Made by a program: the position numbers and the translations under genes. From sequence record DRR723986_1737: DNA of 64,000 nt; one strand, written 5' to 3'. This document shows, piece by piece, positions 8,383-57,472 of this stretch. Position 1 is the stretch's first letter; the number at the start of each line of letters is the position of its first letter. The notes under the pieces are model-generated. The model was not told the origin of the DNA and made no database searches. It was given only the letters and a program-made list of their open reading frames with translations.

Positions 8383-10030
8383 GTGCGTCCTCCTGAGCGG
8401 TGATGCCGCGGAACAGCAGTAAGACGGGTAGCAAACCGATGAGCACAATCGCCAGCGCCGGCGTGGCCGCATCCGCGAGGCGTTCATCGGAGGCCAGCTC
8501 ATAGGTGCGCACTGCCAGGGTGTTGAAATTGAATGGGCGCAGGATCAGGGTGGTGGGCAATTCCTTGAGCACGTCCACAAACACCAGCAGCAGGGCACCG
8601 AGCAGGCTGGCGCGCAGGATCGGCAAGTGAACCCGGCGCAACAGGCCAGTGGGTGATTCGCCCAGGGCACGCCCGGACTCGTCCAGGCTGGGCTTGATCC
8701 GCGCGAGCCCGGACTCCACGGTTTGCAGGGAGACAGAGAGAAAGCGCACCACGTAGGCGAATACCAGGGCCACGAGCGTGCCGCTGAGAATCAGTCCCGT
8801 GGAAACCCCGAGCCAGTCCCGAGCCAGGGTATCGATCCGGTTGTCCAGCCAGGCAAAGGGAATGAGTACGCCAACGGCGATTACGGTGCCGGGGATCGCG
8901 TAACCCATGGCTGCGATGCGGCTTGCGGTGATTTCCGTCGCCCCCGGTGACAGGCGCTTGCCATAGCCCAGTAACAGCGCCACCAGCAGGCAGCAGCCGG
9001 CGCTACCGGCGGCCAGCAGGAAGCTGTTCCAGACCAGCTGGGCAAACTGCGCGTTAAGATTCGTTTGCCAGTGAGCGCCTGCCCATAGTGCCAGCTGGCA
9101 AGCCGGGATGAGAAAGCCCAACAGCACGATAACGACGGCGAACCCGGTAGCTGCCGGGCCACTCCAGCCGCTCAGCGCAAGACGTGTAGGCTGGCGCGCG
9201 GCCGTGCCATGGTGATACCGCAGCCGTGCGCGGGATACCCGCTCCAGGGCGAACAGGGTAAACACGAAGATCAGCAGCAGAGCCGCCAGCTGGGCCGCGG
9301 TGGTAAGTTCGCCCAGGCCGTACCAGGTCCGGAAAATACCGGTGGTAAACACACTCACGCCGAAATAGGCCACGGTGCCGTAGTCCGCCAGGGTTTCCAT
9401 CAGGGCCAGGCTGACGCCAGCGGCGATCGCCGGGCGCGCGAGTGGCAGACCAAGTTCGAACAGTGCCTGTCGCGGGTTTCGGCCGAGGCTGCGGCTGGCT
9501 TCGAGCAGGGCTGTGGACTGTTGCGCGAAGGCAACCCGGGCCAGCAGGTAAACGTAGGGATACAGGACCAGGGAGAGCATGACGATCGCGCCGCCGAGCG
9601 AGCGTATTTGCGGAAAGTAGTAATCACCGTAAGCCCAGCCGAAGGTCTCACGCAGCGCCTGCTGGACCGGCCCGCTGAAATCCAGCAGGCCGGCATAGGT
9701 GTAGGCGATGATATAGGCCGGCATTGCCATCGGCAGCAGCAGGGCGGCGCTGAGCAGGCGGCGGCCGGGGAAATCGCACATCGCCGTCAGCCAGGCAGTG
9801 CTCACACCCAGCAGGAAGGTGCCCAGTCCGACGCCGAGCATGAGCCCGAGCGAGTTGAGCACATAGTCTGACAACACGGTGTCGGCCAGGTGGCGCCAGG
9901 CCGGTGAAAAGGGCTGGGTAAGACTGGATACGATTACCAGCAGGGGCAGCGATAGCAGCAGGGCCACGCTCACCAGCGCGGCGCGCCAGCGGCGATTGAC
10001 CCCGGTGGCGACCGGGAGCGACCAGGTCAC
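8375..10030 (-). CDS. fbpB: Fe3+ ABC transporter permease
   Basis: 551 aa, two permease repeats with EAA-type loops, METLADYG and DVLKELP motifs. Confidence 0.92.
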   Translation of the reverse strand: MTWSLPVATGVNRRWRAALVSVALLLSLPLLVIVSSLTQPFSPAWRHLADTVLSDYVLNSLGLMLGVGLGTFLLGVSTAWLTAMCDFPGRRLLSAALLLPMAMPAYIIAYTYAGLLDFSGPVQQALRETFGWAYGDYYFPQIRSLGGAIVMLSLVLYPYVYLLARVAFAQQSTALLEASRSLGRNPRQALFELGLPLARPAIAAGVSLALMETLADYGTVAYFGVSVFTTGIFRTWYGLGELTTAAQLAALLLIFVFTLFALERVSRARLRYHHGTAARQPTRLALSGWSGPAATGFAVVIVLLGFLIPACQLALWAGAHWQTNLNAQFAQLVWNSFLLAAGSAGCCLLVALLLGYGKRLSPGATEITASRIAAMGYAIPGTVIAVGVLIPFAWLDNRIDTLARDWLGVSTGLILSGTLVALVFAYVVRFLSVSLQTVESGLARIKPSLDESGRALGESPTGLLRRVHLPILRASLLGALLLVFVDVLKELPTTLILRPFNFNTLAVRTYELASDERLADAATPALAIVLIGLLPVLLLFRGITAQEDARG

Positions 10031-10038
10031 GGCTCCGC

Positions 10039-11070
10039 TCAGCGCCAGCTAGCCCGGTCCATGGCCATCACTGCGGCCGCATTGAGGCGTCCAAGTTCCG
10101 CTACTGGCACCTCGTCCGCCTTGAAGCTGCCCCAGGATGCCAGCAGCGCACTGGGTGGAATGTCAGCACGCACCGGGTATTCGTTATTGGTTTCTGCATA
10201 CCATTGCTGGCTCTCGTCCCGGGTGAGGAATTCGATGAGCTGCAGTGCAGCCTCCGGGTTCTTCGCAGCGGCGGTAACGCCGGCGCCGGACACATTGATG
10301 TGGGTGCCGCGCCCATCCTGGTCTGGCCAGAAAATAGCCACCTTGGCGGCTGCCGCCTGCTGTTCAGCGATTCCCGAGGTGATCATGCCGCCCAGGTAAT
10401 AGCTATTGACCACCGCGATATCGCACTGGCCGGCTGCCACAGCGGCAATCTGGTCGCGATCACCACCTTGTGGCGGGCGGGCGAAATTCGCCACAAAGCC
10501 CTTCAGCCACGCCTCGGTGTGCTCCTGCCCGCGGGTGGCGAGCATGCCGGCAACCAGGGACTGGTTGTAGATATTGTCCGAGGAGCGAATGCAAATACGG
10601 CCACGCCATTGTGGCTCGGCAAGCGCGTCGTAGCTGCTGAGCTCATCGGCGGTGACCCGGTCCCGTGCGAAGACAATGGCTCGAGCGCGAACGCTGAGAC
10701 CGTACCAATAACCCTCGGCGCTGCGCAGGTGTGCGGGGATTGCCGCGGCCAGGCCCGGGGAGGGCATGGCCCGCAGTACGCCGGCTTCCTGCGCGCGATA
10801 GAGGCGGCCGACATCGGTGCTGATGAGCAGGTCCGCGGGCGAATTCCGGCCCTCGTTCTGGAGGCGGGTCAGCAGGGCGTCGCCGGAGCCGGTCACCAGG
10901 TTAACAGTGATGCCCGTCTGCTCGGTGAACCGGTCCAGTAAGGGCTTGATCAGGGCTTCCTGGCGGGCGGAATAGACATTCACCTCGCCTGCGGACCAGC
11001 CGCTGGGGACAAAACACAGGGCGCACAGGGCCAGCAGCGTGCTGGGCAGGCGGGGGAGGATGCGGATCAT
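10039..11070 (-). CDS. fbpA: Fe3+ ABC transporter substrate-binding protein (FutA/FbpA)
   Basis: Signal peptide, VNVYSAR, iron-binding NSYY tyrosines, NNEYP. Confidence 0.92.
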   Translation of the reverse strand: MIRILPRLPSTLLALCALCFVPSGWSAGEVNVYSARQEALIKPLLDRFTEQTGITVNLVTGSGDALLTRLQNEGRNSPADLLISTDVGRLYRAQEAGVLRAMPSPGLAAAIPAHLRSAEGYWYGLSVRARAIVFARDRVTADELSSYDALAEPQWRGRICIRSSDNIYNQSLVAGMLATRGQEHTEAWLKGFVANFARPPQGGDRDQIAAVAAGQCDIAVVNSYYLGGMITSGIAEQQAAAAKVAIFWPDQDGRGTHINVSGAGVTAAAKNPEAALQLIEFLTRDESQQWYAETNNEYPVRADIPPSALLASWGSFKADEVPVAELGRLNAAAVMAMDRASWR

Positions 11071-11094
11071 TAGGTGGCTACCGGGTCAGGTTAT

Positions 11095-11120
11095 TGAGAA
11101 CGCTAATTATTCTCATTTAG
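11095..11120 (-). promoter_or_regulatory. Probable Fur box upstream of the Fe3+ ABC operon
   Basis: Minus strand CTAAATGAGAATAATTAGC (11120-11102) matches 13/19 of GATAATGATAATCATTATC; TGAGAA/TTCTCA inverted repeat. Confidence 0.8.
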
Positions 11121-11254
11121 CCACATGAAAGCAAGCCACAGGCCCTGCGATTAGACCCAGCTGGCCCTGCGGCGGTTGGTCAGCAATTTGTTAATGCTGA
11201 ATCAGGGTTAGAATGCGCAGTTTAACAGACAGTTAGCCTGAGCGAGGTAGCCAG

Positions 11255-12046
11255 ATGAAGGGAAACCACAGCCGAACCGGCCTGCGTGCCGCGTCCCCGT
11301 GCAGGGCGGTAGGACGACGCTCTTCATCCCTGCTGCGCTGGTGTCTCCTGTGGTCCTTTAGTGCCTTCCTGGCGGGCTGCGGCGACGATCCAATCATTAC
11401 CGCCTCTGAGTGCGATCACGGCCTGACAGCGGAGGAGGCGACAAATGGTTGGCGTGTGCTGTTTGACGGCAGCAGCCTTGCACAGTGGCGCAGCTACGGC
11501 GAACAGACGGTCGATGATGGCTGGGTGATTGAGAATGGCTGCCTCGCCCGGGTCGGCTGGGCTGGCGACCTTATCACCCGCGAACAGTATGGTGACTTCG
11601 AGCTCAAGCTGGACTGGCGCATTTCCGATTCTGGTAATAGCGGCATCTTCATTCGCGGCGACGAGTCGGGCAGGTCGCTGCCCCAGACGGCGCTGGAGAT
11701 GCAGGTGCTGGACAATCACGGGCACTGGGACGGAGACGACCCGACTCATCGCGCCGGTGCATATTACGACATGATCGCCCCGGGACATGACACCAGCCGT
11801 CCGCCGGGCACCTGGAACGCGGTGCATATCATCGCCCGAGGTCCCCATGTGGAGTTCTGGCTGAACGGGCAACAAACGGCCAGTTTCGAGCAGGGCAGCG
11901 ACGCGTGGCGCGAACTGTATGCGCAGAGCAAATTCGCCGATCGCCCTGCGTACGGCTCACTGCTGCGCGGTCATATCGGCTTGCAGGATCACTGGGACAA
12001 GGTGTGGTACCGGAACATCCGGGTACTGCCGCTGGACGCTGAGTGA
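11255..12046 (+). CDS. DUF1080 (3-keto-disaccharide hydrolase-like) lipoprotein
   Basis: LAGC lipobox; GW..LFDG, YGDFEL, NSGIF, EMQVLD, GHIGLQDH, YRNIRV. Confidence 0.9.
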   Translation: MKGNHSRTGLRAASPCRAVGRRSSSLLRWCLLWSFSAFLAGCGDDPIITASECDHGLTAEEATNGWRVLFDGSSLAQWRSYGEQTVDDGWVIENGCLARVGWAGDLITREQYGDFELKLDWRISDSGNSGIFIRGDESGRSLPQTALEMQVLDNHGHWDGDDPTHRAGAYYDMIAPGHDTSRPPGTWNAVHIIARGPHVEFWLNGQQTASFEQGSDAWRELYAQSKFADRPAYGSLLRGHIGLQDHWDKVWYRNIRVLPLDAE

Positions 12047-46340: not shown

Positions 46341-47849
46341 CTAACAGACTTTTAAGGTCATCCCCAGCTTTTTGAGCTGGGTCACCTCGTTGTCCAGCTC
46401 CCAATCGGTTAGCGGGTGTTTGCCCAGCCAGCCCTTGGGTAAATCCAGTATGAGCTTGTCGTCCCCGGCGATGATCGCGAAATCCGGCAGCTGCTCGAGT
46501 TGTTCTACGTACTTGAATACCGCTGCCAGGCGAACGATGGTGATCAGGCGCAGCATGCGCTGGCGATCCTGGCCGCTAAAATCCGCCAGTACATCCTCCT
46601 GGAGCTTGCCTCGGTGCGCGTTAACCAGAGCCGCGAGTTGTTCCTGTTCTTCCTGTGAGAAACCGGGAAGGTCGGAATTGCGCAGCAGATAGGCCGAGTG
46701 GCGGTTGTAATGCTTGTGTGAAATGGCCATGCCGATCTCATGGCTTAGCACCGCCCAGTGAATCAGGTCCCAGTCTGTTGCGGTTAACTGCCAGTCCGAA
46801 CGCGTCCCGTTGAACAGGAAGCCTGCCCTGCGGGCGACGATTATCGCCGTATCCTGGTCTGTTGAATAGCGTTGGGTCAGGGCGTTGATCGTGCGTTCAC
46901 GCACATCCTCGTGGGCGAGGCGACCCATCAGGTCGTAAATCACGCCTTCGCGTAATGCACCTTTGGAGGTCCGCATATGTTCGATGTCCAGTACATCGAA
47001 CAGCGCGCTGGTGATCGCGACGCCGGCAGCGATCACATTGCGCCGGTTGTCCGCCAGCCCGTTAAGCGCGATATCGTCAAAGCGCTCGAACTTCAGCAGT
47101 TCGCGGCGCAGCTTGTCCAAACCCTTGCGCTGGATGCCACCATCGCTCCAGCCGTTAGTGGTCAGAACTGTTTCTATGGCCTGTAAGGTCCCGGATGAGC
47201 CGACACACTCCTCCCAGTTTCGGGCGCGGAAGCGTTTGCGAATGTGGGTTACTTCCGTTCCTGCGCGCTTGTAGGCCAGTTTGAAGTTGTCCTTGGTCAG
47301 CAGGCCACCGGGGAAATAATCCTGGGAGTAGGAAACGCAGCCCATTTGCAGGCTTTCCAGCCGCTGGGGTTCGAAGCGTTCGCCGATAATGAATTCCGTA
47401 CTACCGCCGCCGATATCGATCACCAGGCGCGACTGGGCGTCGTCAGCCAGTGAGTGGGCGACCCCGAGATAGACCAGGCGTGCTTCCTCCCGGCCGTAGA
47501 TGACATCTACCGGTGCGCCGAGGATCTTGCGGGCGGGCTCGGTGAACTCCCGGCGATTCTTGGCCTGGCGCAGGGCGTTGGTACCCACCACGCGAATCTG
47601 TTCCGGTGAGATGCTGCTCAGCAGCTGGGCAAAGCGGGACAGGCACTCAAGCCCGCGATCAATCGCCTCCTGGGTCAGGCGGCGGTCCACCAGGCCTGCG
47701 CCCAGCTGGACTTTTTCGGCGAGTACTTCGATCGGGCGCATTTCGCCATGCTCGATACGCGCGATAATCAGGTGGAAGGAATTGCTGCCCAGGTCGAGCG
47801 CAGCGAGCTGGCTGCCCTCGGCCAGGGGTTCGACGTTGTCAGTCTCCAA
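46341..47849 (-). CDS. ppx: Exopolyphosphatase Ppx/GppA (start uncertain; ORF extends to 47912)
   Basis: LDLGSNSFH, GTNALR, EEARL, DIGGGSTE, ALREG, HD-like C-terminus. Confidence 0.93.
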   Translation of the reverse strand: METDNVEPLAEGSQLAALDLGSNSFHLIIARIEHGEMRPIEVLAEKVQLGAGLVDRRLTQEAIDRGLECLSRFAQLLSSISPEQIRVVGTNALRQAKNRREFTEPARKILGAPVDVIYGREEARLVYLGVAHSLADDAQSRLVIDIGGGSTEFIIGERFEPQRLESLQMGCVSYSQDYFPGGLLTKDNFKLAYKRAGTEVTHIRKRFRARNWEECVGSSGTLQAIETVLTTNGWSDGGIQRKGLDKLRRELLKFERFDDIALNGLADNRRNVIAAGVAITSALFDVLDIEHMRTSKGALREGVIYDLMGRLAHEDVRERTINALTQRYSTDQDTAIIVARRAGFLFNGTRSDWQLTATDWDLIHWAVLSHEIGMAISHKHYNRHSAYLLRNSDLPGFSQEEQEQLAALVNAHRGKLQEDVLADFSGQDRQRMLRLITIVRLAAVFKYVEQLEQLPDFAIIAGDDKLILDLPKGWLGKHPLTDWELDNEVTQLKKLGMTLKVC

Positions 47850-47927
47850 TTCGTATGCTGCCGCTGCTGCCCAGGGGTTCCCTATGGTACTGGATAGCGG
47901 TGCAGGGCGCACACCTGAAAGGTGGAT

Positions 47928-48536
47928 CTAGCTGATCATGTTGTAGCTGATCAGCCCCACGATGCCGCCGATCGCGGCACTGCGGCGCAGCACGCCCAGG
48001 TCAATTTTCGACAGCTCGGCGAGGGGATTGCCACTGCTGCGGGTGCGCCACAACACCGGCCACTCGATGGCGCCGGCAAAACCCAGGCTGGCCACAGAGG
48101 CGGCGAGCAGGGAGGCGCGCCCGGCGGTATCCGGCGGCAAGGCGGAGAACAGGAAATAGATAGCGACCAGGGAGCCGACCGTGCCACCCAGGCTCATGAC
48201 GTAAAACTGGCGCACCGAATTGGCTTCAAAGCTCCAGTCATAGACGAACAGACCGGGTTTGCGAGGGATCGTATGCTGCCCGCCTGCGACCTTCGCGCCG
48301 AAGTAGTGGAACCACTCATGTACCAGGGTGGGCAGCGCCGCACCCGCGATGAGCCCGGTAACCACGCTCAGGCCCTCTGCCAGTCCCAGGCCGCTCAGGG
48401 TGTACCAGCTATCAGCGGCCGCGAACAGGGACAGGGCCAGCAAGACGATGGCGATATGAAAGCCCGCGTGCCGCGCGAGGTTCACGCCATTGCCAGCCGG
48501 TATCACGTCGGCCATCTCGGGATTGGTGTCGTTCAC
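47928..48536 (-). CDS. Hypothetical integral membrane protein with HExxH motif
   Basis: About 5 hydrophobic helices; LVHEWFH. Confidence 0.7.
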   Translation of the reverse strand: MNDTNPEMADVIPAGNGVNLARHAGFHIAIVLLALSLFAAADSWYTLSGLGLAEGLSVVTGLIAGAALPTLVHEWFHYFGAKVAGGQHTIPRKPGLFVYDWSFEANSVRQFYVMSLGGTVGSLVAIYFLFSALPPDTAGRASLLAASVASLGFAGAIEWPVLWRTRSSGNPLAELSKIDLGVLRRSAAIGGIVGLISYNMIS

Positions 48537-48634: not shown

Positions 48635-50017
48635 CTAGGCCCCGGCCCCCTCGCGCAGGTCGCGCAGGCTCTGTTTGAGGTATTTGCCGAGCTGCTCAAT
48701 GCCTGGCTGCAGGGTAGGGCAGCTGGTGATCGCGAAACAGAGTTTCTGGCGGTAGCTGACAACTGTCAGGTTGATCCCCATGCCGGCGGTGACTACCGAC
48801 AGTGGGTAGATAGCCTGTAATTGGGAGCCCTCGAGGTACAAGGCTTCCCGTGACCCGGGCACGTTGGAGAAGATCGCGTTGATGGCAGGGGTTACCTTGC
48901 CGGCGGCGCCGGCGAGGGTGAGGATGATGGTGGGCATCAACATCATGTTGGCGAAGTCCTGCGAAGCGGTCGGTGACATGGCGGCGAGTTCGCGCTTGGC
49001 CTTTTTGGTCGAACGGATCACGCGCTGCAGGCGCTTTACCGGGTCGCTCTCGGTGGTAAAGAACGGGCACAGGATGAAGCTCAGCTGGTTACCCTCGGCG
49101 CTGCGGCCACCCTTGAGCGATACCGGCACCCCCGCGATCAGCGATTTGCGGGGCAGGGCGTTCTGCTCGATCAGGTAGTGGCGCAGCGCACCGCCGCACA
49201 CCGCCAGCAGCACGTCATTCAGGGTGCCCCCGTACTGCCGGCCAAGTTCCCTGGCCGTGCGCAGTGACAGGTCGGCCACCACGATGCGGCGACGGCTGTC
49301 GATATCCTCGTTAAACAGGCTGTGCGGTGCGGTGAAGGGCAGAATCATCCCTTCGCTGTTGCCGCGCCAGGCGTCCAGGCCCATGTGGGTGAACAGGTTG
49401 GACAGCTGGGGAATGGCACTGTATTGGCGTAGCAGGCCCTTGCTCAGTTTGCCCATATCCTGCAGCAGGTTGTGGGCCTCATGGTGCTCCCGTGCACGGG
49501 ATTTCACCTGCCGGTAATCGATGCGGTCATCAGCTGAGGTGGAGAACAGCGCGTTGATCATCCGCAGGGCCCCCACGCCGTCTACCAGGGCATGGTGCAC
49601 CTTGGAGTACAGGGCAAAGCGGTTGCCGGACAGCCCCTCGATCAGGTGGATCTCCCACAGGGGCCGACCACGGTCCAGGCAGCGCTCATGCGCGGCGCTC
49701 ACCAGTTCGATCAGGTCGCTCATCCGTCCCGGTGCGGGGAGGGCATAGTGCAGCACGTGACGCTGGGGCTTGTAGTCGTCCTCCTCGACCCAGGCGGCTT
49801 TGCGGCTGGCATCCTGATTCTGCAGTTTGCGATTGAACACCGGCCACACCTCGTTGAGCCGGCCGCAGTGGCGCGCCAGGGTGCGCAGGTAGTTCGGTGG
49901 CGCATCCTCGGGGAGTTTGAAGATCATCAGCCCGGCGACGTGGAAGGGTCGCCGATCGGACTCCAGGCGAAGAAAGGCGTTGTCCTGGAAACTGAGTCGC
50001 TGCATGGCCGCATCCAT
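48635..50017 (-). CDS. Wax ester synthase/diacylglycerol acyltransferase
   Basis: LDRGRPLWE, KVHHALVDG, TLNDV, SNVPG, NLTVVSY. Confidence 0.94.
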   Translation of the reverse strand: MDAAMQRLSFQDNAFLRLESDRRPFHVAGLMIFKLPEDAPPNYLRTLARHCGRLNEVWPVFNRKLQNQDASRKAAWVEEDDYKPQRHVLHYALPAPGRMSDLIELVSAAHERCLDRGRPLWEIHLIEGLSGNRFALYSKVHHALVDGVGALRMINALFSTSADDRIDYRQVKSRAREHHEAHNLLQDMGKLSKGLLRQYSAIPQLSNLFTHMGLDAWRGNSEGMILPFTAPHSLFNEDIDSRRRIVVADLSLRTARELGRQYGGTLNDVLLAVCGGALRHYLIEQNALPRKSLIAGVPVSLKGGRSAEGNQLSFILCPFFTTESDPVKRLQRVIRSTKKAKRELAAMSPTASQDFANMMLMPTIILTLAGAAGKVTPAINAIFSNVPGSREALYLEGSQLQAIYPLSVVTAGMGINLTVVSYRQKLCFAITSCPTLQPGIEQLGKYLKQSLRDLREGAGA

Positions 50018-50085: not shown

Positions 50086-50520
50086 TCAGTCCTCGACCGG
50101 GGCGAGCACCGCGAAGGCCCAGCCCATGCGGGTGTAGGGCGCCAGGAAGTCGGCGATTTTGCCGATGTACGGCGGCAATGAAGCGGGGCGACGATAGCGC
50201 TTGCCCGGCGCCATGACGAAGGCCCTGGCCGCGCGTGGCTTGCCGCCCAGGAAGAAACGTACCCGGGGCTGTTTTCGCAGGTTCTTGACCCAGAAAGAAC
50301 GCTCCCCGCGGGCGGTGCTCACGAAGACATAGCCACCCAGCCGGATCGCCACCAGCGGCGTGCGCCGCAGCGCCCCGGATTTGAAGCCTTCGGTCTCCAG
50401 CAGAATCAATCCGCCAGGGACGAAGCGCGGGGATCCGATGCCGAGCTTTACCGCCGGTTCGACGAAGCGGTTCAGCAGGCGGAAGAATTCGCGCTCCAGT
50501 TGTTGCCGGTCAACGGCCAT
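50086..50520 (-). CDS. Deazaflavin-dependent nitroreductase family (Ddn/DUF385-like) protein
   Basis: LLETEGFKSG..RRTPL and WVKNL...P.V motifs. Confidence 0.78.
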   Translation of the reverse strand: MAVDRQQLEREFFRLLNRFVEPAVKLGIGSPRFVPGGLILLETEGFKSGALRRTPLVAIRLGGYVFVSTARGERSFWVKNLRKQPRVRFFLGGKPRAARAFVMAPGKRYRRPASLPPYIGKIADFLAPYTRMGWAFAVLAPVED

Positions 50521-50545: not shown

Positions 50546-51631
50546 TCAGTCCGCTACCACCACCCGGGGGGTGCGCATTGGCATCCGGGTGGTCAGTTCA
50601 TAGCCGATGGTTTCCGCGTGTGTGGCAATCTCGCCCAGGGGCAAGCCATCACCCCAGAGAATCACCTCATCCCCAACCTGGACATTGTGCAGGTCGGTGA
50701 CATCGACGGTGATCATGTCCATGGAGACCCTGCCGGCCAGCGGCGCGCGTTGCCCGTTGACAAGGACCGGAGTGCCATTGCCCGCGCGCCGGGGATAGCC
50801 GTCGCCATAGCCAATGGTAACGGTGGCGATTCGGGTCGGCCGGCTTGCAGTGAAGGTGGCGCCGTAACCGACGCTGTCGCCGGTGGCAAGCTCGCGGACC
50901 GATATTACCGCGGAGGTGAGGGTCATGACCGGTTGCAGGCGCGCTGCGTTGTCCTGATGTCGATCGAACGGCGAGTTGCCGTACAGCATATAGCCCGGGC
51001 GTACCCAGTCGTAGTGGGCCTGGGGCCAGGCCAGCAGGCCGGGTGAGTTGGCGGCGCTGCGTGGCCCGGGCAGGCCGCTGGTGGCCGTATCGAAAACTGC
51101 CAGTTGGCGACTGGTCTGGTGACTGTCGAGATCATCAGCGGAGGCGAAGTGTGTCGACAGGACCGGTGCCTCGGCGCAGTTATCGCTGGCCTGCAGGCGC
51201 TGGTAAAACTCAGCGACCCGGGCCGGGCTGACACCGAGCCGGTGCATGCCGGTGTCAATTTTGAGCCAGCAGTACACCGGCGCCGGCAGGCGCGCTTCCT
51301 CCAGCCAGCTCAGTTGCCATTCGTTATCGATGGTTATCCACAGGCCCAGTTCAGCTGCGGTTACCAGTTCACGGGACTCGAATACCCCCTCAAGTAACAT
51401 GATGGGGCTGGCGATGCCGGCATCACGCAGCTCGACTGCTTCCTCGATGCAGGCGACCGCGAGGGCGTCGGCACTGCCTTCCAGGGCGCTGGCGATGGTG
51501 ACCGCGCCGTGCCCGTAGGCGTTTGCCTTGACCACTGCCATGATCCGCGACGTCGGTGCGAGTTCGCGCGCCAGCGCCAGGTTGTGGCGCAGCGCACCGA
51601 GGTTCAGCAATGCCTGGTTGGGCCGGGCCAT
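50546..51631 (-). CDS. alr: Alanine racemase
   Basis: AVVKANAYGHG PLP lysine, KIDTGMHRLG, VGYG, GYGDG, GRVSMDM. Confidence 0.96.
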   Translation of the reverse strand: MARPNQALLNLGALRHNLALARELAPTSRIMAVVKANAYGHGAVTIASALEGSADALAVACIEEAVELRDAGIASPIMLLEGVFESRELVTAAELGLWITIDNEWQLSWLEEARLPAPVYCWLKIDTGMHRLGVSPARVAEFYQRLQASDNCAEAPVLSTHFASADDLDSHQTSRQLAVFDTATSGLPGPRSAANSPGLLAWPQAHYDWVRPGYMLYGNSPFDRHQDNAARLQPVMTLTSAVISVRELATGDSVGYGATFTASRPTRIATVTIGYGDGYPRRAGNGTPVLVNGQRAPLAGRVSMDMITVDVTDLHNVQVGDEVILWGDGLPLGEIATHAETIGYELTTRMPMRTPRVVVAD

Positions 51632-52488
51632 CAGTAGTCGAACTTGTGCCGTGTATACAGGGTCTGGGCAGCAAGCCAGACATCACCGACCTTGCCGTCC
51701 CCCACCGGTTTGCCGTCGATCTCTACCACCGCGCCTATTTCCTTGCTGGAGCTGGTAATCCACACTTCATCAGCGTCATCGAGTTCTTCCAGCATCACTA
51801 CCCGTTCTTCGACCGGGATGTCGCCGTGCTTACGCAGGATGTCCAGCACCATCAGCCGGGTGATCCCCGGCAGTTTCTGGTGATCCAGTTCCGGTGTGGC
51901 GACGACCCCGTCCTTGATTACGAAGACATTACAGGCCGCGGCCTCGGTCAGTTCACGATTGGCGTTATAGAGGATGGTCTCGTTGTGCCCGCGGCTGTGG
52001 CCGTGCTGGTAGTGCATGACATTGCCCAGCAGTGCTGTAGATTTGATATTGCAGCGTTTCCAGCGCAGGTCCTCACAGGTGGACACGGTGTAGCAGGTGG
52101 CCGCGGCCTTGTCGGGCACTGGCGCGGGCGGGATCTCGGCGGCAAAGGCGTAGATGGTCGGCGTGATATTTTCCGGGTAGGCGTGATAACGGCGGCTATC
52201 GGCACCGCGGCTGACATGGAAGTACACACCGAGGTTGCCGCCGCCATTGCGTTCGATCAGTTCCATACTGATTTTGCGCCAGGCCTCGTGATCCAGCTTG
52301 AGGCGGATTTCCAGCGCATCGAGCCCATCCTGCATTCGCTGCAGGTGTGGGCCGAATCCAACCAGCTGGCCGTCGTAGGAAGGGATGACTTCGTAGATCC
52401 CGTCGCCGAACAGAAAGCCGCGATCCATCGGAGAAATGCGTGCCTCGGACATCGGCATATAGTCGCCGTTCAGGTAAACGATAGTCAT
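51631..52488 (-). CDS. dat: D-amino acid aminotransferase (PLP fold IV)
   Basis: DRGFLFGDGIYEV, YFHVSRG...RYH, DLRWKRCNIKST.LL, LPGITR, ITSSSKE. Confidence 0.88.
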   Translation of the reverse strand: MTIVYLNGDYMPMSEARISPMDRGFLFGDGIYEVIPSYDGQLVGFGPHLQRMQDGLDALEIRLKLDHEAWRKISMELIERNGGGNLGVYFHVSRGADSRRYHAYPENITPTIYAFAAEIPPAPVPDKAAATCYTVSTCEDLRWKRCNIKSTALLGNVMHYQHGHSRGHNETILYNANRELTEAAACNVFVIKDGVVATPELDHQKLPGITRLMVLDILRKHGDIPVEERVVMLEELDDADEVWITSSSKEIGAVVEIDGKPVGDGKVGDVWLAAQTLYTRHKFDY

Positions 52489-52507
52489 GGGTAAAACCTC
52501 GCAGTAG

Positions 52508-53356
52508 TCAGGATTTGAGAGCTGCCTCGGCCGCCAGGCCGCGGAGCTGTGCAATCAGGGCTTCGCCTTCCTCGGCCGGTAGCCCGTCCTCGGTCAGGGT
52601 GTTCTCTCCGGTTACCCCGTCCACGCTGCCTCTCTCGGAGAGATAGTGCAACAGGCTCCGGGGCGATACCTCGGCGAGCAGGTCGCGGCCGGACCACAGG
52701 CCGAGAAACAGGAGCAGGCCGTAGGCGCCCCAGTTGGATACGTCCGCCACCAGCAATTCGTCGCAGCGAGTGATGGCGCCGCGAATATCCAGGGTGCCGA
52801 TGGCCTCGGCGATATTGCCCATACCGATCTCGTTGCCGCCATCACCGATACCGATAGTGGGGCATTCGCATTCGCTGATATAGGGATCGAAAATGCCGCA
52901 ATTTTCACTGATATCAACGCCGCGCATATTGTAGTAGCGGCCGTCATCAGTAAGCCCCGGACGCTCGATGGAAACCACCGCCGCCGGTGCCAGTTCGCGC
53001 AGCGCGGCCCGCGCCTCGGCGGTCGCATCTTCCAGTCCGGTTTTGGTCAGCTCCAGCACCCGGTAGTCGCCTGCCAGAATGCCTGCCAGTGGTGTGGAGC
53101 AGGCCAGCCAGGGTTCCGCCCCGAGCGTTTCCAGGCCGCGGTAGAGTGCGATTGCGCCCACCGGCCCATCTGTTTCGAAGGTACCCGCAACCGGGAAGCC
53201 GGTGCCGATAATGACCGGGCCACTGATGTCGCGCAGGTAGGCGGCTGCACGCGCATAATAGCCGGGCTCAAGCGCTGCCTGCGCGGTCTTCATATGGCGC
53301 AGGTTGCGTGCAACCAGGGCGTCCTCTACCTTGCGGCTGAGTTCGAGGTCGGTCAT
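52508..53356 (-). CDS. DUF4392 / D-glutamate cyclase C-terminal domain protein
   Basis: TGF, ETDGP.GA, IERPG, YYNMRG.DIS, IGIGDGGNEIGMG, VSNWG. Confidence 0.88.
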   Translation of the reverse strand: MTDLELSRKVEDALVARNLRHMKTAQAALEPGYYARAAAYLRDISGPVIIGTGFPVAGTFETDGPVGAIALYRGLETLGAEPWLACSTPLAGILAGDYRVLELTKTGLEDATAEARAALRELAPAAVVSIERPGLTDDGRYYNMRGVDISENCGIFDPYISECECPTIGIGDGGNEIGMGNIAEAIGTLDIRGAITRCDELLVADVSNWGAYGLLLFLGLWSGRDLLAEVSPRSLLHYLSERGSVDGVTGENTLTEDGLPAEEGEALIAQLRGLAAEAALKS

Positions 53357-54291
53357 GCAGGGCTCTCCATCAGCGCCTGACGGCGGGCAAAACTGGCCGC
53401 CAGGTGCAGTGCATTGTGTGCCGCGTGGGGTGTAATCGGGGTGAAGTAGACCCGGCCCCCGGGTCGCAGTTGGGCGAGTGGCCCGGTGTCCAGCGACAGC
53501 GCGGCGCCGATCTTCGGATAGCCGCCGATGGTTTGCCGGTCGTTAAGCAGCACGATCGGCTGGCCGTCCGCTGGCACCTGGATCGCCCCGTGGCAAATGC
53601 CCTCGGACAGGATGCCCTCGATGTCACATTCGATTGCTGGACCTTCAAGCCGATAGCCCATCCGGTCACAGCGCTCCGACACCTCGTAGGCGCTGCTGAA
53701 GAAGCGGCGCTGCTGGAGACGAGGAAAGCGGGCCTGCTGGTAGCCGGGGATGACCCGTACGGTGATCGTATCGTGGTAGTGCGGTTGCATTTCCTCCGGC
53801 AGGTAACGGATACGTCGCCCGCTGGTGGCGCTGCACGGCAGCACATCGCCGCTTGCGAGTTTGCCGCCGTTCAGGCCGCCGATGCCTTCCCGTGCCACGG
53901 TGGAAACACTGCCGAAGCTGGGTTCGATATTGAAGCCATCGGCAACGCCGAGGTAGGCGCGGCAGCCCGTCTCCGCGAAACCCAGGTGCAGGATATCACC
54001 GGCTTTTATCGGCAGGACGCGGTAGCGCGGCTGCTCCTGCCCGTTGATTGCTACCGGCACGCTCGCGCCGGTGACGCAGACGAAGGTGTCTACCCGGGAT
54101 TCCAGTTCCAGTCCGCCGAAGCTGACTTCGATGGCGGGACTGCCAGGCGCGTTATCCAGCAGGCGATTACAGAGTTGGAAAGCGCTGGCATCCAGCGGGC
54201 CGCCGGTGGTCAGCCCGATCCGGTGCTGGCCGATGCGTCCCGCATCCTGCAGCAGGCTGAGCAGACCCGGTTGGCGCACTGCCAGGGCCAT
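53353..54291 (-). CDS. pxpC: 5-oxoprolinase subunit C
   Basis: QDAGR, RAYL, DRMGYRL, GAIQVP.DGQPI, DRQTIGGYPKI. Confidence 0.92.
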   Translation of the reverse strand: MALAVRQPGLLSLLQDAGRIGQHRIGLTTGGPLDASAFQLCNRLLDNAPGSPAIEVSFGGLELESRVDTFVCVTGASVPVAINGQEQPRYRVLPIKAGDILHLGFAETGCRAYLGVADGFNIEPSFGSVSTVAREGIGGLNGGKLASGDVLPCSATSGRRIRYLPEEMQPHYHDTITVRVIPGYQQARFPRLQQRRFFSSAYEVSERCDRMGYRLEGPAIECDIEGILSEGICHGAIQVPADGQPIVLLNDRQTIGGYPKIGAALSLDTGPLAQLRPGGRVYFTPITPHAAHNALHLAASFARRQALMESPA

Positions 54292-54968
54292 CAGATGGCT
54301 CCCCCGAGTTCCAGGTAGCGGGCTCGGTCGACCGGCTCGAAGCGCACCCGGTCACCGACCTCTACCGGCATAGCCGGCTCCCGCTGCGGATCGAACATTC
54401 TTATCGGGCAGCGTCCAATGAGGTTCCAGCCGCCGGGGGAAACGGCGGGGTAGACCGCAGTCTGGCGATCGGCAATAGCGACGGCGCCGCGTGGCACCTT
54501 CTGGCGCGGGGTTGCCAGACGGGGCGCCGCGATGCGCGGATCAACCTCGCCGAGATAGGCGAATCCCGGGGCGAAGCCGATGGCGTAGACCCGGTACTCC
54601 AGGGCGCTGTGCAGGTCGATTACCTGCTCGATATCCAGGCCGGCGCGCTGGGCCAGCGGCTCCAGGTCTTCGCCGACTTCCGGGTGGTAGTAAACCGGCA
54701 GCACGAGTTCCTTGCCGACGCCCTGGCTGGAAGCCGTGAGCGCCGCTGCCTGCTGCCGCAGCTGATGGGCAATATGCAGGTGGTCAGTGAGTAGCGGGTC
54801 GTAGATAACCAGCAGCGAGGCGTAGGAGGGCACCAGGTCAACCAGCGCCTCCCCCAGGGTATCTTCCATTGCCCGGGCGAGCGCCTGGACCCGGTCCGAG
54901 ACTTCGGGGCTGGTTTCCTCGCCGAGATAGGCTATGAGGGCGTTCTCACCCGCCGAATGCAACTGCAT
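54291..54968 (-). CDS. pxpB: 5-oxoprolinase subunit B
   Basis: LVPSYASL, GFAPGFAYL, YP..SPGGWNLIGR. Confidence 0.93.
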   Translation of the reverse strand: MQLHSAGENALIAYLGEETSPEVSDRVQALARAMEDTLGEALVDLVPSYASLLVIYDPLLTDHLHIAHQLRQQAAALTASSQGVGKELVLPVYYHPEVGEDLEPLAQRAGLDIEQVIDLHSALEYRVYAIGFAPGFAYLGEVDPRIAAPRLATPRQKVPRGAVAIADRQTAVYPAVSPGGWNLIGRCPIRMFDPQREPAMPVEVGDRVRFEPVDRARYLELGGAI

Positions 54969-54969
54969 G

Positions 54970-55704
54970 TCAGGAACTGCCGCTGACCAGTTCGCGAATC
55001 GCGCGAATCGCCTGGACGCCTTCGAGGTTATCGCCGTGCACGCACAGGGTGTCGGTGGCCAGCGCCAGGGTCTTACCGCTGACCGTGGTGACGGTGCTGT
55101 CGGCGCAGAGCTGGGCTACCTGGGCGAGCATGCGCTCGCGGTCGTGGACTGCACCGGGCAGGCGGCGGGACAGCAGTCGGCCGTCATCGTCATAACACCG
55201 GTCGGCGAAGGCCTCGAACAGCAGGCTGATGCCCATGGCCTGCGCTTCCTCCCGGTGTTGCTCAGCGTCGGGCGTTGCCTGCAGCATCAGCGCGATAGGG
55301 CGGTGATAGCTGGCCACCGCCTCCATAATCGCGGCACGGACTTCGGTTTTCGCCATCATGTCGTTATACAGCGCGCCGTGGGGTTTGACGTAATTCACCT
55401 GCAAACCCTGGCTGGCGGCCATGCCTTCCAGCGCGGCGACCTGGTACTGCAGGTTGGCGATGATTTCGTCGGCGGTGAGATTCATTGGCCGGCGCCCGAA
55501 CCCGACAAGGTCGGGGTAGGCCGGGTGCGCGCCGACGCTGACGCCGTGCTCAGCGGCCAGCGCAAGCGTTCTGCGCATGGTCAGTGGATCGCCGCCGTGA
55601 AAGCCGCAGGCGACGTTGGCCTGGTCGATATGCGGCATGACCTCTTCGTCCAGGCCCATGGTCCAGCTACCGTAGCTTTCCCCGAGATCGCAATTGAGCA
55701 GCAT
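54970..55704 (-). CDS. pxpA: 5-oxoprolinase subunit A (LamB/YcsF)
   Basis: LNCDLGES, NVACGFHGGDP, VKPHGALYN, EAFADR, TLCVHGD. Confidence 0.95.
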   Translation of the reverse strand: MLLNCDLGESYGSWTMGLDEEVMPHIDQANVACGFHGGDPLTMRRTLALAAEHGVSVGAHPAYPDLVGFGRRPMNLTADEIIANLQYQVAALEGMAASQGLQVNYVKPHGALYNDMMAKTEVRAAIMEAVASYHRPIALMLQATPDAEQHREEAQAMGISLLFEAFADRCYDDDGRLLSRRLPGAVHDRERMLAQVAQLCADSTVTTVSGKTLALATDTLCVHGDNLEGVQAIRAIRELVSGSS

Positions 55705-55716
55705 CGTCAGTATTTC

Positions 55717-56520
55717 CTAGAGCAGCGCCAGCTGGCTGTTACGCAGGTCGCTCACCAGCATACAACCCGGACTGTGGGTGATCGCCAGCGGCGGTCGGGC
55801 ACTTTCCAGTGCGACCTGGGGGGTGACTCCGCAGGCCCAGAATACGGGTACCTCGTCGTCGCCTATGGTTACCGGGTCGCCGTAATCGGGGGCTGACAAA
55901 TCCGCAATGCCGATTTGTGCCGGGTCACCGAAGTGGATCGGCGCGCCATGCACGGACGGAAAGCGGGTGCAGATCTGGATCGCGCGGATCGCGTCCGCAG
56001 CGCGGAAGGGGCGCATGCTGACCACCATCTTGCCCGCGAAGGGCCCGGCCGGTGTGCAATTGATATTGGTACGGTACATCGGAACGTTAACACCCTGGCT
56101 GACGTTGCGCACTTCCAGTCCGTCTGCCAGTAATGCCTCTTCGAAAGAAAAGGAGCAGCCCAGTGCGAACGTGACCAGATCATCGCGCCATATCGCGCGT
56201 ATGTCCGGCCGCTCTTCTACCAGCGTGCCATCGTGGAACACGCGGTAGCTTGGCACGTCACTGCGGATGTCTATATCCCCCAAACGTGTTAGTGACGGGT
56301 CGCCGGCCGCGGTGCTGGTGGCGATCAGCGGGCAGGGTTTGGGGTTGGCCTGGCAGAAGCGCAGGAAATCACCGGCCCAGGCCTCGGGCAGAATGACGAT
56401 ATTGCACTGCACATAGCCCGGCGCCTGGCCCGACGTGTTGCCGGTGAAACTGCCGTCGCGGATCGCTGCGCGCAACGCCTGGGGACTGTCGAAACTGGCC
56501 ATGGTGTGATGATCCTCCAT
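55717..56520 (-). CDS. DUF1445 / YcsI putative hydro-lyase (D-glutamate cyclase N-terminal domain)
   Basis: [45 protein letters not shown]. Confidence 0.92.
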
Positions 56521-56632
56521 TGTCAGTGAACTATAGCCCCAGTTGGCGGCCGAGTAACAGTCGCCGCTGGCAATAGTTTTGTGCCGGGGAAAGAATTGCG
56601 GATAATGCCGCTCCCGGATGCAAGGAATCCTT

Positions 56633-57472
56633 ATGCTGGAACAACTGCTGGAAGTACTGCGGATGACGCCCGCGGGAGAGAACCGCTACGCTGCCCGAAA
56701 TATGCACCCACGTGCGTTTCGCGTCTACGGGGGCCAGGTGCTTGCGCAGGCGGTGATGGCGGCCCGCGATACGGTGGAGCCAGAGCGGGTGCTGCACTCC
56801 CAGCATGCCTATTTTCTGCGCCCGGGCGATCCCCGGCAGGCGATCAGTTACGAGGTGGAACATGCCTTGGACGGGGGAAGTTTCAGCTCGCGCCGGGTCG
56901 TTGCGGTCCAGCACGGTCGGCCTATCTTCGTCAGCTCCCTATCTTTCCAGCGGCCTTCTCGCGGTGAGCACTATCAGCCCGAGGCGCCGTCGGTACCAGA
57001 CCCGGACAGCCTGCCCTCCGAGCGGGAACTCGCGCTAGCGACCGGCACCCTCGACGAAGATTTCATGATTACCACCGGTCACGACCTCGATATCCGGGTG
57101 ATCGACCCGGTCGATTGGACAAATCCGCAGCCCCGGGCCCCGGTGATAGAGGCCTGGATGAAGACTTCCGGACCCCTGCCGGATGAGCCGCCCCTGCATC
57201 AGGCGCTGCTGGCCTACCTGTCCGATGCGCTGTTGATCGATGTCTGCCTGGCCACCAGGGGCCAGACCTTTCTAGACGACAAGCTCCAGGTCGCGAGCCT
57301 GGATCACGCGCTCTGGTTTCACGCGGATTTCCGCGCCGATGACTGGCTGCTGCATGTAGTTAATAACGAGGTTATGGCGGGCGGGCGCGGCCTGGCGCGG
57401 GGCAGCTTTTTCACCAGGGACGGTACACTGGTCGCGACCGTGATGCAGCAGGGCCTGATGCGCTACCGCTGA
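56633..57472 (+). CDS. tesB: Acyl-CoA thioesterase II
   Basis: [41 protein letters not shown]. Confidence 0.9.

Follow-up and report, generated by a model that had tools for sequence, protein, structure and literature searches.

Introduction

The gene cluster described here combines elements of two known systems. One is the bacterial 5-oxoprolinase PxpABC, which was reportedly described by Niehaus et al. in 2017 and is said to be encoded in Bacillus subtilis by the operon pxpA(ycsF)-ycsG-pxpI(ycsI)-pxpB(kipI)-pxpC(kipA). The other is the mammalian mitochondrial D-glutamate cyclase (DGLUCY, also named C14orf159 or 9030617O03Rik; EC 4.2.1.48), in which a DUF1445 and a DUF4392 domain are both present; the purified enzyme is reported to convert D-glutamate (D-Glu) to 5-oxo-D-proline (PMC5339696). 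On the minus strand of a DNA stretch of 64,000 nucleotides (nt) from sequence record DRR723986_1737, hereafter the window, we find seven co-oriented genes in the order DUF1445-pxpA-pxpB-pxpC-DUF4392-dat-alr, which join both domains and the three oxoprolinase subunits to an aminotransferase resembling D-amino-acid transaminase (DAT) and to an alanine racemase. On balance, we lean towards reading this operon as the D-glutamate/D-alanine hub of a lineage without glutamate racemase, with a 5-oxoproline branch on its D-Glu pool.

The likeness to each described system is partial. As in the B. subtilis operon, the DUF1445 gene stands together with pxpA, pxpB and pxpC, and the DUF1445 profile matches B. 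subtilis; in the window, however, it is placed ahead of pxpA, DUF4392, dat and alr are added, and there is neither a Mn transporter nor a KipR regulator. None of 14 control genomes, B. subtilis included, has DUF4392. The names ycsI and pxpI are both in use (PMC10448178; C. difficile preprint). Unlike in DGLUCY, the two domains of the window reside in separate proteins, 2.4 kb apart with pxpABC between them, and the bacterial activity is predicted from the genes only. A bacterial fusion of the two domains (P0018, one layout scanned) begins with DUF4392, whereas the human order is reversed, with the TON_0340-like domain at the C-terminus; the authors of the TON_0340 study also noted the fusion of TON_0340-like and Atu3911-like genes in animals (PMC5132392). 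TON_0340 of Thermococcus onnurineus is homologous to the DUF4392 protein of the window and shares its six acidic ligands; it differs in standing alone, as archaea lack DUF1445 according to the same source (PMC5132392). A further likeness concerns the supply of D-Glu.

Some Bacillus and Staphylococcus species obtain D-Glu from D-amino-acid transaminase and alanine racemase in place of glutamate racemase. The same logic (L-Ala to D-Ala, then D-Ala and 2-oxoglutarate to D-Glu) would apply to the window; here, in contrast, it is predicted for a whole gammaproteobacterial family, and both genes lie in an operon with oxoprolinase and cyclase genes. The DgcN-DgcA system of marine Proteobacteria converts D-Glu to L-Glu irreversibly and at a cost of energy, through an N-acylated intermediate that is then racemised (Yu et al. 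2023, ISME J, as cited in PMC12363236). A route of cyclisation, inversion and reopening would share this chemical logic, although the DgcN-DgcA proteins, an N-acetyltransferase and a racemase, are unrelated.

Our literature searches found no published description of the bacterial operon, of a function of bacterial DUF1445 or DUF4392, or of bacterial 5-oxo-D-proline metabolism. The component families are already known, the link between DUF1445 and pxp is visible in B. subtilis, and the animal fusion has been characterised. What is new here is the family-wide lack of the glutamate racemase gene murI together with single-copy alr and dat, which shifts the reading from scavenging to the core D-glutamate economy. 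The preliminary description of this DNA, made from the sequence alone, had proposed a complete route for D-Glu or D-pyroglutamate, suited to the scavenging of D-amino acids from peptidoglycan: its observation of the operon is confirmed, and its interpretation is supported for the gene identities, the link of the two DUF proteins and the canonical look of DAT and Alr, but not, in the form given, for dedicated scavenging. The results suggest that cell-wall synthesis in an entire family of bacteria abundant in coastal seas dispenses with glutamate racemase and depends on one operon, which bears on marine D-amino-acid cycling and on enzyme essentiality in such bacteria. For two widespread domains with the mammalian D-glutamate cyclase as their sole assigned activity, they also offer the best genomic access to date.

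Organization of the operon

The open reading frames (ORFs) of the window were assigned to families by Pfam and NCBIfam profile searches. The operon and the region ahead of it comprise the following features (aa, amino acids).

55717..56520, minus strand: DUF1445 / UPF0317 / YcsI(PxpI)-like "putative hydro-lyase", 267 aa; PF07286 225 bits, 3.3e-67; NF003969 404.9 bits against a cut-off of 324
54970..55704, minus strand: pxpA (LamB/YcsF), 5-oxoprolinase subunit A; PF03746 4.6e-90; NF003816 338.7 bits against a cut-off of 213
54291..54968, minus strand: pxpB (KipI-like), 5-oxoprolinase subunit B; PF02682 2.6e-71; TIGR00370 167 bits against a cut-off of 145.55
53353..54291, minus strand: pxpC (KipA-like), 5-oxoprolinase subunit C; PF02626 3.4e-83; TIGR00724 250.9 bits against a cut-off of 230.2
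52508..53356, minus strand: DUF4392 / TON_0340-like protein with a predicted two-metal (Mn) site, 282 aa; PF14336 214 bits, 5.1e-63
51631..52488 (probable ATG start), minus strand: dat, DAT-like class IV aminotransferase; PF01063 1.9e-50
50546..51631, minus strand: alr, alanine racemase; PF01168 and PF00842; TIGR00492 384.7 bits against a cut-off of 168
56521..56617, no strand: presumed operon promoter region, 97-nt intergenic region shared with the divergent tesB, placed from the coordinates

These matches support the identities that had been named for all seven genes, and the ORF coordinates bear out the described order and the spacing by gaps of at most 19 nt or overlaps. From DUF1445 to alr, successive genes are first separated by 12 nt and by 1 nt, then overlap by 1 nt and by 4 nt, are separated by 19 nt between DUF4392 and dat, and finally overlap by 1 nt. 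The program-listed ORF of dat spans 51631-52554 with a TTG start; because similarity to the family sets in only near residue 24, and because a GAGG precedes the ATG at 52488-52486, the true extent of the gene is probably 51631-52488. A simple scan found no minus-strand terminator-like sites between the seven genes, with total counts no higher than in shuffled sequences, and a simple promoter scan called no sigma-70-like site in the 97-nt region ahead of DUF1445.

Conservation of the cluster

A search with the DUF4392 protein of the window against one genome per species yielded 80 related loci at 60-69% identity, in which the gene order was read by tblastn with the cluster genes. Nearly all are titled Halieaceae (which we take to be the OM60/NOR5 group), Halioglobus, Haliea and relatives. 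All seven genes occur in identical order in 66 of the 80; the other 14 hold subsets with the order kept, many of them on short contigs. We judge the seven-gene arrangement to be more than chance. DUF4392 is found in 77/81 genomes of a Halieaceae family sample versus 12/401 in a phylum sample (Pseudomonadota, including one unpublished genome, G384).

Leaving the reference genome aside, 11 genomes of the phylum sample have DUF4392, and four of these carry DUF1445-pxp(A)BC-DUF4392-dat, with DUF4392 identities of only 45-56%; one of the four has alr and one lacks pxpA in the cluster. The proposed synteny survey for dat and alr beside DUF4392-pxp gives 66 loci with the complete set and a core with dat in these four genomes. 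Beyond the 80 related loci, a core of six genes that lacks alr is found in three Pseudomonadota genomes. Because the core recurs at such identities, it is older and more widespread than the seven-gene form, and alr is an addition in Halieaceae-type clusters.

This distribution bears on the suggestion that two unrelated housekeeping modules merely lie side by side, DUF1445-PxpABC-DUF4392 repairing 5-oxo-L-proline and dat/alr feeding the cell wall, with no exchange of D-Glu. The attachment of alr only in Halieaceae-type clusters, and its location elsewhere in three genomes with the six-gene core, would agree with such a juxtaposition, as would the occurrence of DUF1445 without DUF4392 in the controls B. 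subtilis and C. glutamicum. The three adjacent genes encode the PxpA, PxpB and PxpC families (PF03746, PF02682 and PF02626), pxpA is single-copy in 5/5 related genomes, and an OPLAH-type oxoprolinase was not detected in four of the five. PxpABC is the only oxoprolinase in three of them (G001, G100 and G335), where it must handle the L-lactam, which would fit a juxtaposition too. The single-copy pxpA and the missing OPLAH-type enzyme count for the hub that we favour, in which PxpABC would be the cell's only 5-oxo-L-prolinase as well. The subunit C is best called PxpC-like, exact equivalence not being certified by its score, which reaches the broader TIGR00724 and not the equivalog NF045499 (206.6 bits against a cut-off of 500). 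Against two separate modules stand the position of dat directly after DUF4392 in the four distant genomes and the activity of the animal fusion of both DUF domains on D-Glu (PMC5339696). With the domain fusions described below, these points lead us to regard the side-by-side explanation as improbable.

Some loci depart from these arrangements. At L101 and L149 (G220), the cluster reads DUF1445-pxpB-pxpC-DUF4392-dat, and the sole pxpA of G220 stands alone about 500 kb off on the same contig. L042 and L069 (63-66% identity) lie in metagenome-assembled genomes (MAGs) that bear the titles Psychromonas and Bacteroidia, whereas the remaining records are of the Halieaceae type; mis-binning or gene transfer may be the cause. 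Other contexts of DUF4392 are mixed, two loci having a class V aminotransferase and one a Mur-ligase-like gene. At L103 (G284:C1:78500-98400, about 8800-11500), DUF4392, a PF01177 Asp/Glu/hydantoin racemase domain and a second DUF4392 share one open frame, and DUF1445, a glutaminase and a LysR regulator are encoded nearby. The presence of an enzyme of the hydantoin racemase type next to DUF4392 would be consistent with the racemisation of cyclic amides, 5-oxoproline among them.

Glutamate racemase, alanine racemase and the DAT-like aminotransferase

The genome-wide statements on murI and on alr and dat copy number come from relatives, not from the window's own genome. Glutamate racemase was called by TIGR00067 above its cut-off, which is positive in E. 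coli and nine other controls. By this measure, it is present in 1/81 Halieaceae genomes versus 270/401 of the phylum sample (305 at E<=0.001); nine further Halieaceae genomes give weak matches of 22-42 bits, which correspond to other members of the racemase superfamily. TIGR00067 stays below its cut-off in all five named genomes (Haliea salexigens DSM 19537, Seongchinamella unica, Kineobactrum sediminis, Mangrovimicrobium sediminis and a Motiliproteus MAG), and the complete Halioglobus chromosome (G001) shows no glutamate racemase by TIGR00067 and PF01177. The check for murI suggested in the preliminary description, run here on relatives, therefore points to a family in which the usual glutamate racemase is apparently missing. 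Weak PF01177 matches in G001 and G192 were rejected as candidates, the proteins being PanB.

The alr of the cluster is the only full-length alanine racemase in 7/7 related genomes (G001, G192 and the five named). The other PF01168 matches of G001 and G192 are sized like YggS or decarboxylases, and in the five named genomes the single alr match sits inside the cluster locus. The DadX exception model is not reached (364 versus 600). G001 encodes three class IV aminotransferases; besides dat, these are IlvE and PabC, both identified by curated models and encoded away from the cluster, so that dat is the only DAT-like gene in this one complete genome. Its best NCBIfam and PDB matches are D-amino-acid transaminases. 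In an alignment to Bacillus DAT (3DAA) over 261 residues, the Tyr, Arg-x-His, Lys and Glu positions are identical, presumably Y31, R98, H100, K145 and E177 of the Bacillus enzyme. Both DAT and Alr look canonical.

Family membership, the conserved catalytic residues and the absence of other such genes in the relatives suggest the reactions of both enzymes. Alr would convert L-Ala to D-Ala, and Dat would transfer the amino group of D-Ala to 2-oxoglutarate, giving D-Glu for MurD; run in reverse, Dat would drain D-Glu. Since the family lacks murI, dat and alr must first serve cell-wall synthesis, and it is probably these two housekeeping genes that provide the wall with its D-Glu and D-Ala. The operon thus looks like core metabolism rather than an accessory scavenging island, because it is near-universal in the family and holds the sole alr, dat and pxpA where murI is missing.

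The same observations bear on the dedicated catabolism of scavenged D-Glu or D-pyroglutamate that the preliminary description had favoured. There, D-Glu would pass through 5-oxo-D-proline and 5-oxo-L-proline to L-Glu, or 5-oxo-D-proline would be opened to D-Glu, which Dat would convert to 2-oxoglutarate while Alr turns D-Ala to L-Ala. The enzyme set does write out as a complete route, and the DNA of the window was found in marine plankton metagenomes (marine, seawater and estuary DNA runs, with no RNA run among those listed). However, Pfam and NCBIfam assignments of the window neighbours reveal no transporter or regulator in or beside the operon, DUF4392 occurs in nearly all genomes of the family, and genes that are the only alr, dat and pxpA copies of relatives without murI cannot be reserved for catabolism. 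A route dedicated to peptidoglycan-derived D-amino acids is therefore not supported, and we consider it rather unlikely; a double role of the operon in cell-wall supply and catabolism is conceivable.

The DUF4392 and DUF1445 proteins

The DUF4392 protein matches TON_0340 (PDB 4DWZ/5GKX) at 3e-30 over about 230 residues. According to the structural report, TON_0340 has a two-metal site of six invariant acidic residues and is a weak Mn-dependent phosphatase whose substrate was not identified, and mutation of E59 or D157 abolishes its activity (PMC5132392). In 25 aligned DUF4392 sequences, six acidic residues (E61, D63, E131, D172, E176 and D257) are invariant, with E61 and D172 aligning with E59 and D157 of TON_0340. 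The alignment indicates that DUF4392 retains all six acidic metal ligands.

The DUF1445 protein matches PDB entries 3DB9 and 2PIF at 1e-80, both of them structural-genomics entries without assigned function. Its gene is single-copy in 5/5 related genomes and present in 44/401 genomes of the phylum sample. Among 46 aligned sequences, C63 is invariant, whereas C122 (in the GCSF motif) and C230 (in WACG) are kept in 44, both being Ser in the same two outliers. In an AlphaFold model with a pLDDT of 92, C122 and C230 are each located at a strand-to-helix junction. A wide structure search with the model (VIA-align) retrieved 2PIF with a Z of 33 and 3NEK with a Z of 9.6, the rest scoring below 5.

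The DUF1445 proteins at L147 and L148 (G288 and G390) are divergent (47-49% identity), having Ser in place of each of the two conserved Cys and no H249. In place of pxp or importer genes, they adjoin a FliR-family flagellar export gene, a CitMHS transporter or a MucR regulator; they possibly represent a subfamily of changed function.

Fusions and neighbourhoods of DUF1445

A survey of 493 longer DUF1445 homologues was evaluated from the 120 matches listed, counted by hand from their Pfam strings. Among these listed matches, 71 combine DUF1445 with DUF4392, some with bacterial names and some from eukaryotic sets. Seven listed matches join DUF1445 to HyuA/HyuB, the OPLAH-type oxoprolinase, four to PxpC and one to PxpB and PxpC. 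In five, plus one partial form, DUF4392, a MurD-like part and DUF1445 are present together; two have a pyridoxal-phosphate (PLP) dehydratase-like domain with DUF1445, and the remainder is assorted. Domain scans confirmed the layouts of eight fusions. In the MurD part, the match extends over model positions 1-297 of 441, so that the N-terminal and ATP-binding domains are present and the C-terminal domain is not. Some of these DUF1445 fusions could be gene-calling artefacts.

The five proteins with the DUF4392/MurD/DUF1445 Pfam set (P0034, P0056, P0072, P0086 and P0101) measure 860-945 aa, and the scanned layouts of P0034 and P0056 read DUF4392, truncated MurD, DUF1445.

Neighbouring genes give a similar picture. 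In the phylum sample, pxp genes lie within 7 kb of 18/45 DUF1445 loci, five of them with the B. subtilis-like order pxpA-DUF1445-pxpB-pxpC and five with the order of the window. Of the 27 loci with no pxp, 26 were scanned with Pfam at the two nearest ORFs each (51 proteins). A LysR regulator is present at 15/26 and an OPLAH-type oxoprolinase is adjacent at 2/26, while a transporter component adjoins DUF1445 at 21/26 (TRAP 11, ABC binding protein 5, MFS 3, TctC 1 and CitMHS 1). Bordetella TRAP binding proteins bind 5-oxoproline (PMC13274462). These importers and LysR regulators at DUF1445 loci elsewhere, and the binding of 5-oxoproline, count in favour of the scavenging route weighed above.

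Because of the fusions with PxpC, PxpB-PxpC, an OPLAH-type oxoprolinase and truncated MurD, and because of its neighbour genes, we tie DUF1445 to ATP-driven lactam opening. The family appears to be associated with both unrelated kinds of ATP-dependent 5-oxoprolinase and with probable pyroglutamate importers. Gene fusions and synteny thus back the proposal that connects the two DUF proteins with the metabolism of 5-oxoproline and D-Glu. The fusions of DUF4392, truncated MurD and DUF1445 tie the pair to a D-Glu-using enzyme family, which argues against two modules without D-Glu exchange. Fusion to three different ATP-using modules makes the function of the DUF proteins open to concrete enzymology.

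The proposed 5-oxoproline branch

Every reaction of the hub that we favour is predicted: what the data show are the identities of the genes, their synteny and fusions, the conservation of catalytic residues, and how many copies the relatives have. Beside Alr and Dat, the other five genes would constitute a branch that connects this D-Glu pool with 5-oxoproline. DUF4392, with its Mn site, would act with DUF1445 to interconvert D-Glu and 5-oxo-D-proline. For the L pair, the equilibrium constant (Keq), [Glu]/[5-oxoproline], is about 0.035 (PMC13274462), so that the lactam would be favoured about 29:1 at equilibrium. The ATP-driven PxpABC machinery would then recover the lactam as glutamate. Inversion or reclamation of the lactam is needed, because cyclase and oxoprolinase would otherwise form a futile cycle.

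The recovery could proceed in two ways. In the first, the lactam would be inverted and opened to L-Glu, and the obvious candidate for the inversion is DUF1445 with its two Cys; this would give a one-way D-to-L route following the DgcN/DgcA logic. In the second, ring opening would be D-specific, DUF1445 acting on PxpBC, and the D-Glu released would pass through Dat to 2-oxoglutarate. Alternatively, the purpose of the branch may be to reclaim spontaneous or imported 5-oxo-D-proline as D-Glu for MurD or Dat.

We tentatively put forward, as a possibility short of a probable one, that DUF1445 is the missing stereochemical adaptor in the D-glutamate metabolism of bacteria and perhaps of animals. One form of this would be a cofactor-independent 5-oxoproline racemase that relies on the two co-varying Cys; in the other, DUF1445 would be a lactam subunit specific for the D form, with PxpBC, OPLAH or a MurD-like domain lending it their ATP machinery. 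Together with the DUF4392 cyclase, DUF1445 would constitute a one-way, ATP-driven converter of D-Glu to L-Glu (or of 5-oxo-D-proline to Glu) that replaces murI recycling in lineages that lost murI. If inversion takes place at the lactam stage, DgcN/DgcA would no longer be the only irreversible route from D- to L-glutamate, this being the second.

The branch can also be read as biosynthesis of 5-oxo-D-proline as an end product, e.g. an inert compatible solute, made from L-Ala through D-Ala and D-Glu and remobilised by PxpABC. The gene order is readable as such a linear pathway, cyclisation is thermodynamically favoured (PMC13274462), and 5-oxoproline has been proposed as an osmoprotectant (PMC13398684, PMC13274462). 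No exporter or osmoregulatory element is present among the window neighbours, however, and the same core occurs in varied genomes; we regard this explanation as very improbable.

Several points weigh against the hub with its 5-oxoproline branch. The lack of murI and the single copies of alr and dat are taken from relatives at 60-72% identity, many of them MAGs of unstated completeness. The aminotransferase scores below the NCBIfam DAT cut-offs (TIGR01121 213.8 versus 277.45, NF005209 238.2 versus 320), and because of these scores we call it DAT-like. The six-gene core is also present in two genomes with glutamate racemase (G335 and G220), and the 12 DUF4392-positive genomes of the phylum sample divide into six with murI and six without; since half of them have murI, the tie of the cluster to murI loss does not appear obligatory. 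Another D-Glu route, such as MurD2/MurL, may exist in the lineage. MurD2/MurL of Xanthomonas is another answer to a missing glutamate racemase, described in bacteria also without DAT, and the genera listed in the review do not include Halieaceae (PMC8788868). Unlike those bacteria, the relatives of the window have a DAT-like gene and one MurD-type gene; in these genomes a search that did not include MurL finds one MurD-type gene per genome above the cut-off, in the dcw cluster among other Mur ligases.

The remaining difficulties concern the stereochemistry of the branch. If PxpABC reopens 5-oxo-D-proline to D-Glu, cyclase and oxoprolinase amount to a futile cycle. Inversion would require a racemase, a role that the preliminary description had suggested for DUF1445 and for which it is a candidate; however, 5-oxo-D-proline is the reported product of the mouse fusion protein from D-Glu, and this protein showed no glutamate racemase activity (PMC5339696). 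In the search with the DUF1445 model, no racemase or hydrolase fold was listed above Z 5 besides its own family and 3NEK, a non-listing that excludes no family.

Neighbouring genes

One flank of the operon consists of the divergent tesB, an AMP-binding (acyl-CoA synthetase-like) gene and a TonB-dependent receptor. An ORF at 56531-56914 on the minus strand (127 aa) was rejected as probably not a gene, since it matches none of the families and lies antisense to part of tesB. The other flank comprises a small F420H2-reductase-like gene, a wax-ester synthase and ppx, arranged as follows.

50086-50520, minus strand: 144-aa F420H2-dependent quinone-reductase-like / deazaflavin-oxidoreductase-like gene, after a 25-nt gap behind alr; unusual for a gammaproteobacterium
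48635-50017, minus strand: WS/DGAT wax-ester synthase
47928-48536, minus strand: family-less ORF
46341-47912, minus strand: ppx

In the related loci, as read by tblastn, ppx follows alr with no other query gene between them in 33/80, and WS/DGAT is found there in only 2/80; therefore, the genes between alr and ppx look like an insertion in the lineage of the window.

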